A stretch of DNA of 64,000 bases from Escherichia coli O157:H7 (GCF_013167455.1 NZ_CP038328.1), one strand, 5' to 3'. Shown: positions 41,864 to 42,251, counted from the first letter of the stretch. Program-made: numbers and translations. Notes: generated by a model from the letters alone, not told the origin.

Positions 41864-42070
41864 ATGACAAAAATTATGAGATATGACGATGTTAAACCAT
41901 GTCCGTTTTGTGGTTGTCCATCTGTTACGGTGAAAGCAATTTCAGGATATTACCGGGCAAAATGCAACGGATGCGAATCCCGAACTGGCTATGGTGGAAG
42001 TGAAAAAGAAGCACTCGAAAGATGGAATAAACGAACTACTGGAAATAATAATGGAGGTGTTCATGTATAA
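41864..42070 (+). CDS. ralR: Lar/RalR restriction-alleviation protein (type I toxin RalR homologue)
   Basis: MTKIMRYDDVKPCPFCGCPSVTVKAISGYYRAKCNGCESRTGYGG... with CxxC...CxxC; position after recT as in Rac. Confidence 0.6.
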   Translation: MTKIMRYDDVKPCPFCGCPSVTVKAISGYYRAKCNGCESRTGYGGSEKEALERWNKRTTGNNNGGVHV

Positions 42071-42251
42071 AATAACTGCCACTATTGAAAAAGAAGGTGG
42101 CACTCCTACTAACTGGACAAGATATTCAAAATCTAAATTAACGAAATCAGAATGCGAAAAAATGCTCTCAGGGAAAAAAGAAGCAGGCGTGTCCAGAGAG
42201 CAGAAAGTAAAGCTGATAAATTTTAATTGCGAGAAACTTCTGTCCTCGTGA
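42063..42251 (+). CDS. YdaC-like small protein
   Basis: MYKITATIEKEGGTPTNWTRYSKSKLTKSECEKMLSGKKEAG...; RBS GGAGG. Confidence 0.45.
   Translation: MYKITATIEKEGGTPTNWTRYSKSKLTKSECEKMLSGKKEAGVSREQKVKLINFNCEKLLSS

Follow-up and report, generated by a model that had tools for sequence, protein, structure and literature searches.

[quoted passage not shown] The window is the whole stretch of 64,000 nucleotides that was analysed, and all coordinates are counted from its first base. The locus is very probably the orthologue of ralR-ralA-ydaC (rcbA) of the K-12 Rac prophage, situated in the early-left arm of a near-complete Rac-family prophage at ttcA in an E. coli of the Shiga-toxigenic type. A RalR/RalA locus is a routine genome feature, with a K-12 annotation and Rfam and NCBIfam models of its own; it was already known, and toxin-antitoxin action in the present strain is presumed from homology to K-12.

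The ralR gene and its prophage setting

The protein-coding features of the locus are:

41876-42070, plus strand: ralR (lar), encoding a 64-amino-acid Lar-family zinc-ribbon protein reported to be a DNase toxin
42053-42057, plus strand: GGAGG Shine-Dalgarno motif of ydaC, within the last ralR codons and 5 nt before the ydaC ATG
42063-42251, plus strand: ydaC (rcbA), gene for a 62-amino-acid DUF1187 protein, ATG at 42063-42065

The initial annotation had placed here, at 41864-42251, a small Cys-rich Lar/RalR homologue overlapping ydaC. The homologue was confirmed by scores of 165.9 bits on the NCBIfam equivalog model NF007260 (cut-off 113), 55.3 bits on TIGR03655 (anti_R_Lar, cut-off 39.6) and 53.8 bits on Pfam PF14354 (cut-off 28.6, E 2e-14), and the protein has five cysteines in 64 residues, with the CxxC...CxxC pattern of a zinc ribbon formed by C9-xx-C12 and C30-xx-C33. 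Both reading frames are real, and the start of ralR was revised from 41864 to 41876. The in-frame ATG at 41864 lies upstream and gives the translation MTKIMRYDD..., whereas the start at 41876 (MRYDD...) is that of the NCBI annotation of an identical STEC chromosome and of the 64-residue RalR equivalog model, and diverged homologues retain the same MRY start, for which there is a GGAG Shine-Dalgarno motif. The ralR stop codon, TAA, occupies 42068-42070. The proposed overlap with ydaC is also present and the second gene matches DUF1187, but the overlap is 8 nt long (ATGTATAA) and not of the ATGA type, and it leaves no room for a promoter or terminator between the genes. Since ydaC starts 8 nt before the end of ralR and its GGAGG motif lies inside ralR, the two genes are probably co-transcribed and translationally coupled.

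RalR is identical to the K-12 protein at 63 of 64 positions, the sole change being N5D, and residues 14, 37, 39, 49, 51 and 52 (K52 included), at which changes lowered toxicity in K-12 (PMC4041452), are unchanged. Overproduction of K-12 RalR is toxic, the purified protein cuts DNA in vitro while a K52Q mutant does not, and RalR did not alleviate restriction in the hands of Guo et al. 2014 (PMC4041452). Restriction alleviation by Rac Lar was described by King and Murray 1995, as cited in PMC4041452, and the Lar family is named and modelled as restriction alleviation in PF14354, TIGR03655 and PHROG 599. Either activity, DNase toxicity or restriction alleviation, would be carried over to the present strain from the K-12 work. 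A PDB sequence search with RalR returned only spurious or weak matches. Variants of ralR among E. coli haplotypes comprise 32 synonymous and 26 non-synonymous changes (41876-42062), so that ralR is much less constrained within the species than ydaC (32:26 versus 22:3, the latter over 42072-42230). A distinct block of N-terminal variants (positions 4-18) recurs across many haplotypes, which suggests recombination between Rac-like prophages inside ralR.

The plus-strand gene order is recE, recT (ending at 41819), ralR, ydaC, xisR and intR (xisR/intR 42351-43803), with ralR and ydaC at the end of an early-left operon under repressor control; when RacR repression is lost in K-12, expression of ydaC, kilR and ralA goes up more than 70-fold (PMC6765115). 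The 56-nt spacer between recT and ralR contains a perfect 8-bp GC-rich hairpin (41827-41847, plus strand; TGGCGGTG-taatg-CACCGCCA), which is the same in K-12, has no T-run directly after it and may serve to stabilise or process the operon mRNA. Many STEC and O157:H7 chromosomes matched an 801-nt query at the locus with 100% identity, and the locus is present in 1929 of 5426 complete E. coli genomes (about a third). An identical STEC record has ralR, DUF1187, xisR and intR annotated beside ttcA, and RalA is not annotated in it. The host prophage, lambdoid and about 44 kb long at ttcA, carries replication, lysis, terminase, head and tail genes as well as hokD, and judged from this gene content it appears near-complete, far more so than the 23-kb Rac of K-12.

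Several further elements were noted in and around the prophage. By annotation in the identical STEC record, its far end carries DUF1076 genes of the NleG-like type III effector family, at 326-901 on the minus strand and before the first base of the window. An Rfam match to AgvB (anti-GcvB; 27076-27137), which points to an EHEC-type prophage, is followed by STnc100 (27138-27330, minus strand), and matches to DicF (36755-36805), IsrK (37032-37108) and C4 antisense RNA (37133-37220) were also found. Past the prophage end, on the host side, FnrS (minus strand), McaS/IsrA and the ALIL pseudoknot were matched within 46557-46674, 50052-50147 and 55133-55249, respectively. The ALIL pseudoknot is a frameshift element of IS3-family insertion sequences, and therefore an insertion sequence copy is probably present near 55 kb. 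The phage collection gave only six matches, all near-identical, and a scan of IMG/VR only loci that were 98-100% identical; these were used for population counts and not for deep comparison. One record, PP818812.1 ("Actinobacillus phage vB_Apl-pPE4"), has a ralR-ydaC segment (305-748) that is 90.5% identical, a surprising find in a phage of Pasteurellaceae that may indicate an origin of the phage in E. coli or a wrongly assigned host.

The RalA gene and its pairing with ralR

The features that belong to RalA, including its target in ralR, are:

41998-42013, plus strand: RalA target site in ralR, 16 nt (AAGTGAAAAAGAAGCA), codons S42-A46
42069-42247, minus strand: ralA, gene of the 179-nt RalA sRNA (antitoxin), Rfam RF02694
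42069-42102, minus strand: RalA terminator, a 6-bp GC-rich stem with a 14-nt loop, followed by AGUUAUUUU
42086-42096, minus strand: RalA nt 152-162, in the loop of the terminator, a second stretch of 11 nt perfectly complementary to ralR
42170-42185, minus strand: RalA pairing region, nt 63-78 (TGCTTCTTTTTTCCCT)
42257-42262, minus strand: -10 box TATAAT, read from the sequence, ending 10 nt upstream of the RalA 5' end
42286-42313, minus strand: candidate sigma-70-like promoter (TTGACG, 16 nt, AATAAT; 10 of 12 matches)

The minus strand, on which a RalA-like sequence had been expected, contains a full-length match to Rfam RF02694 at 42069-42247 (all 179 model positions covered; 219.2 bits, with a gathering score of 170; E 5e-53), the only one in the window. 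The expected antisense RNA thus exists, though it is not antisense to ralR: it covers nt 7-185 of ydaC and has 2 nt in common with the ralR stop codon. In K-12 the arrangement is identical: ralA (b4714) lies on the opposite strand inside rcbA and abuts ralR. The hok gene to which the initial annotation referred is in the same prophage (29617-29942, minus strand, holds both hokD, annotated in the identical STEC record, and a full-length Rfam match to sok at 29767-29942, 120 bits), and with RalR, ydaC and RalA found in the K-12 layout, its proposal of a second locus of the type I toxin-antitoxin type agrees with the predicted gene content. The apparently complete prophage would then carry two such loci, hok/sok and ralR/ralA.

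The RalA terminator has a predicted energy of -7.5 kcal/mol, a U-tract of UUAUUUU and a stem slightly stronger than in K-12, where it was called a Rho-independent signal (PMC4041452). A simple terminator scan found nothing at RalA because the 14-nt loop is above the 8-nt loop limit of the scan, and the empty result is not evidence of absence. Upstream of RalA, the -10 box is the consensus TATAAT (TACAAT in K-12) and the -35 element is weak (CAGCTA). The TTGACG/AATAAT candidate promoter lies about 30 nt further upstream in the ydaC-xisR spacer, is directed towards ralA, is conserved in K-12 and is stronger than the proximal one; a RalA of about 210 nt, longer at its 5' end, could start from it. 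The RalA 5' end was mapped by primer extension on a plasmid carrying only the segment from the ralR start to the ydaC stop (PMC4041452), and as the distal promoter region was missing from that plasmid, the native 5' end may lie about 30 nt upstream of the mapped one.

In K-12, RalA is a trans-acting, Hfq-dependent regulator of ralR that pairs over a 16-nt repeat whose core of 11 nt matches perfectly, and the site in ralR was defined by mutagenesis, with compensatory changes tested in both repeats (PMC4041452). The 16-nt target in ralR is identical to the K-12 site, and the 11-nt Watson-Crick core with RalA nt 63-73 (42175-42185) is intact. Unrestricted RNAduplex calculations of whole RalA against whole ralR mRNA gave full-length pseudo-duplexes that were no better than those of shuffles, and pairing was assessed by longest-complement counts and short-window duplexes; by the former, an 11-nt complement run occurs in about 1% of shuffles. 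RalA nt 75 (42173) is C where K-12 has A, which adds one flanking mismatch, and the 16-nt pairing consists of 13 Watson-Crick pairs, one G-U pair and two mismatches, versus 14, one and one in K-12, with a duplex energy of -17.3 versus -19.8 kcal/mol. The seed (nt 63-73) is 39% unpaired in the predicted ensemble. With the seed intact, repression of ralR by RalA is plausible from the pairing predicted for this allele.

The second complement, RalA nt 152-162, pairs with ralR nt 126-136, which is the same ralR site as that of the first (duplex -12.5 versus -9.3 kcal/mol in K-12), and its loop is predicted to be 94% unpaired. It is allele-specific and exists because of a synonymous AAG-to-AAA change in ydaC: K-12 has C at RalA nt 156, and U156 occurs in 10 of 45 E. 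coli haplotypes. The RalA 5' hairpin, a stem-loop at the transcript start that was said to stabilise the RNA (PMC4041452), is broken in this allele, pair 5-36 being A-C and pair 7-34 A-A; the Rfam sub-structure has +4.3 kcal/mol versus -5.5 in K-12 and is absent from the minimum-free-energy fold. The single-sequence fold of RalA has a z-score of -1.28.

Protein coding in ydaC and the evolutionary record of RalA

The ydaC product matches Pfam PF06688 (DUF1187) with 129.5 bits (cut-off 20.7, E 6e-38). DUF1187 is a narrow family of 82 clusters, chiefly from E. coli and Shigella, and diverged members were obtained through protein look-ups and a genome scan from Klebsiella oxytoca-type, Citrobacter braakii, Izhakiella and Buttiauxella (two copies) sources and from metagenome contigs. 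These proteins are 50-65% identical to that of the window in the final alignment (54-68% in individual searches). The open reading frame is intact and starts with MYKITA in all ten lineages, and a purine-rich Shine-Dalgarno-like motif lies 6-10 nt upstream of the ATG in each (10/10). Nei-Gojobori dN/dS values range from 0.04 to 0.4 across lineages, with synonymous sites saturated. The first 56 codons differ from K-12 by seven synonymous changes and no non-synonymous change. Among 45 E. coli haplotypes, a count that leaves out one mis-registered sequence, the variants in codons 4-56 are synonymous in 22 cases and non-synonymous in 3, third codon positions account for 18 of 22 polymorphic sites, and the other five reading frames over the gene give 0-16 synonymous changes of 25 variants. 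The AlphaFold2 model (12 sequences) has a pLDDT of 80.6, a pTM of 0.61 and a beta-beta-alpha-beta fold. The rcbA phenotype is reportedly a reduced number of chromosome double-strand breaks.

From these patterns of substitution, ydaC is judged to be a genuine protein-coding gene under strong purifying selection at the protein level, a result that contradicts the claim of Guo et al. that no YdaC protein is made and is the sole new point of the present analysis. That claim came from N-terminally His-tagged YdaC, which was not detected, and from start-codon and early-stop mutations in ydaC, which left antitoxin activity (PMC4041452); the mutants show that the RNA is sufficient for the antitoxin effect and do not show absence of a protein. 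Only spurious or weak matches came from a PDB search with a YdaC profile, and a literature search found DUF1187 mentioned in no paper. A few E. coli DUF1187 variants (clusters P0027, P0068 and P0073) are frameshifted from about codon 30-40, so that ydaC has decayed in some Rac remnants despite purifying selection across the family.

The neighbourhood of the diverged DUF1187 genes was also recorded. DUF1187 occurs without ralR within 2.5 kb in five of eight diverged lineages. In locus L006 a D12-class (Dam-like) DNA methyltransferase gene (2171-3013) occupies the ralR slot upstream of DUF1187, in locus L003 a gene for a 662-aa DNA methylase (3440-5428) lies two genes downstream, and in four loci (L004-L007, about 3192-3616) DUF1187 is followed by a conserved 138-aa protein to which no function is assigned. 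This suggests that the DUF1187 neighbourhood collects DNA-modification or anti-restriction genes.

RalA itself was compared over the same material. Its Rfam structure and the minimum-free-energy fold of the K-12 RNA are exactly the same. Covariation in the 10-lineage alignment was 0.163, versus 0.152-0.162 for slid controls, with 60% of cells paired, and the diverged loci score only 24-36 bits on the RalA covariance model. Ten of 14 E. coli variants at paired positions (45 haplotypes) break the pair and none is compensated; the terminator-stem change G168A is present in 10 of the 45. Third-position or synonymous diversity is 0.080 in ydaC, 0.078 in recT, 0.069 in xisR and 0.053 in intR, and since ydaC equals its neighbours, the overlapping RNA adds no measurable constraint. 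In the three diverged loci that carry ralR (L005, L010 and L011), RalA-ralR complements reach 8 nt at most, no more than chance gives, and the SEKEAL of E. coli RalR is replaced by SKASAL or SKTSAL. Co-occurrence of toxin and antitoxin across homologues was not upheld outside E. coli, where DUF1187 loci are often without ralR. RalA nt 63-74 is invariant in the 45 haplotypes, with four third-position sites free of variants, which is not significant. The seed is the antisense of the K-K-E-A codons of ydaC, and YdaC residues E40, A41 and G42 are invariant in the protein alignment, so coding constraint explains the conservation of the seed. In these alignments neither the structure of RalA nor, outside the E. 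coli lineage, its pairing gives an apparent sign of selection, and RalA looks like a young overlay on ydaC.

Independent experimental support for RalA is thin. Among 3,325 E. coli RNA-seq samples, 61 were scored as expressing it, and it ranks 4505 of 4510 annotated K-12 genes (PMC10392735); Guo et al. 2014 included no northern blot (PMC4041452), and a contemporary review described the ends as unmapped and the locus as unusual or atypical (PMC4147584). A literature search found no independent detection of RalA in O157/EHEC.

Interpretation and comparison with known systems

Moderate weight is given to the toxin-antitoxin model as the biological role of the ralR/ralA locus. According to the K-12 work (PMC4041452), RalA with Hfq would pair through nt 63-78 with ralR codons 42-46 and block translation, and on a bicistronic ralR-ydaC transcript its 179 nt would in addition be perfectly antisense to the ydaC portion. 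The accepted form of the model combines the absence of a YdaC protein with a structured, Hfq-dependent RalA. Because ydaC is apparently protein-coding under purifying selection, the locus is better described as two proteins and an antisense RNA, and with RalA lacking an evolutionary footprint, the accepted model goes back to one set of over-expression experiments and deserves a re-test under native expression. For annotators and for the toxin-antitoxin field this is a caution, as the host gene of RalA evolves as a protein gene and RalA leaves no footprint of its own.

We put forward tentatively, as something that may well not hold, that the selected product of the "RalA region" is YdaC/DUF1187, with or without Lar, and that RalA is an antisense overlay of the E. 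coli lineage. If this is true, the RalA seed would derive from the invariant K-x-E-A-G codons of ydaC, which chance to repeat a Lys/Glu stretch of E. coli ralR; DUF1187 would be kept in the lambdoid early-left operons of several enterobacterial genera; the published claim of no YdaC protein would be wrong and the protein could be responsible for the rcbA phenotype; and the module, instead of being a toxin-antitoxin system, may serve as a pair for anti-restriction or DNA protection.

It is rather unlikely, in our estimate, that the two proteins are the selected functions and RalA only a weak, evolutionarily young antisense, the locus being no toxin-antitoxin system in the addiction or stress sense. 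Lar/RalR would then be an early phage anti-restriction protein and YdaC/RcbA would lower double-strand breaks, the antitoxin effect of RalA being a by-product, under over-expression, of a common Lys/Glu-codon repeat (AAAAAGAAGCA). The naming of the Lar models and the report of King and Murray 1995 (via PMC4041452) agree with such a role, as do the retention of DUF1187 without ralR in five of eight diverged lineages, the methyltransferase in the ralR slot of one locus and the methylase downstream in another, the lack of selection on RalA structure or pairing, the rarity of RalA in RNA-seq (PMC10392735) and the sufficiency of ydaC coding constraint to account for the seed. Against it, RalR gave no restriction alleviation and cuts DNA while K52Q does not, the compensatory changes in both 16-nt repeats were tested (PMC4041452), nt 63-74 is invariant among the haplotypes, though not significantly so, and NCBI and EcoCyc-derived annotation accept the toxin-antitoxin assignment.

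Action of RalA mainly in cis is doubtful. Here a 179-bp duplex on the ydaC part of the transcript would control YdaC and/or trigger RNase III cleavage, and the short pairing in trans within ralR would play a secondary part. The 8-nt gene overlap without space for a promoter or terminator, the coverage of ydaC nt 7-185 and the seed being only 39% unpaired in the predicted ensemble are in keeping with it, and Wen and Fozo raised an interaction via overlapping 3' ends, those ends being unmapped (PMC4147584). However, ralR expressed in the absence of ydaC was neutralised by RalA provided on another plasmid, and the ralR mRNA level did not fall on RalA over-production (PMC4041452). That ydaC is non-coding and the region yields RalA RNA only, as in Guo et al. 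2014, is highly improbable: the undetected His-tagged protein and the antitoxin activity kept by start and stop mutants (PMC4041452) are opposed by ten intact open reading frames at 50-68% amino acid identity with saturated synonymous sites, the 22:3 variant ratio found only in the ydaC frame, the conserved Shine-Dalgarno-like motif, a confident compact AlphaFold2 fold and the retention of ydaC where ralR is absent.

The system closest to the locus is RalR/RalA of the K-12 Rac prophage (ralR b1348, ralA b4714, rcbA/ydaC b1347; PMC4041452), which has the same order beside recT, xisR-intR and ttcA and the same target site, 11-nt core and terminator hairpin with U-tract. The two loci are 96% identical. 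A comparison of 425 nt gave 24 substitutions; YdaC has 62 amino acids here and 69 in K-12, owing to an earlier stop here, and the prophage, which has head, tail and lysis genes in about 44 kb, corresponds to a 23-kb remnant in K-12. The Lar-family restriction-alleviation proteins (PF14354/TIGR03655) include RalR as the same protein, with the small four-Cys zinc-ribbon signature, and the two literatures differ in their account of it, as alleviation of EcoKI restriction or as a non-specific DNase toxin. TisB/IstR-1, ShoB/OhsC and ZorO/OrzO, type I systems whose partners are divergently encoded, likewise use short complementarity (about 16-20 nt) between antitoxin and toxin mRNA in place of a full antisense overlap (PMC4041452). 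In contrast to TisB/IstR-1-type systems, RalR is a soluble zinc-ribbon protein and not a membrane peptide, RalA pairs inside the coding sequence and not in the 5' UTR, with Hfq required, and ralA is nested antisense in a third, protein-coding gene. The hok/sok system is also a prophage-borne type I locus with an RNA antitoxin, but Hok is a membrane toxin, and its antitoxin sok is truly antisense in cis to the leader of hok/mok.
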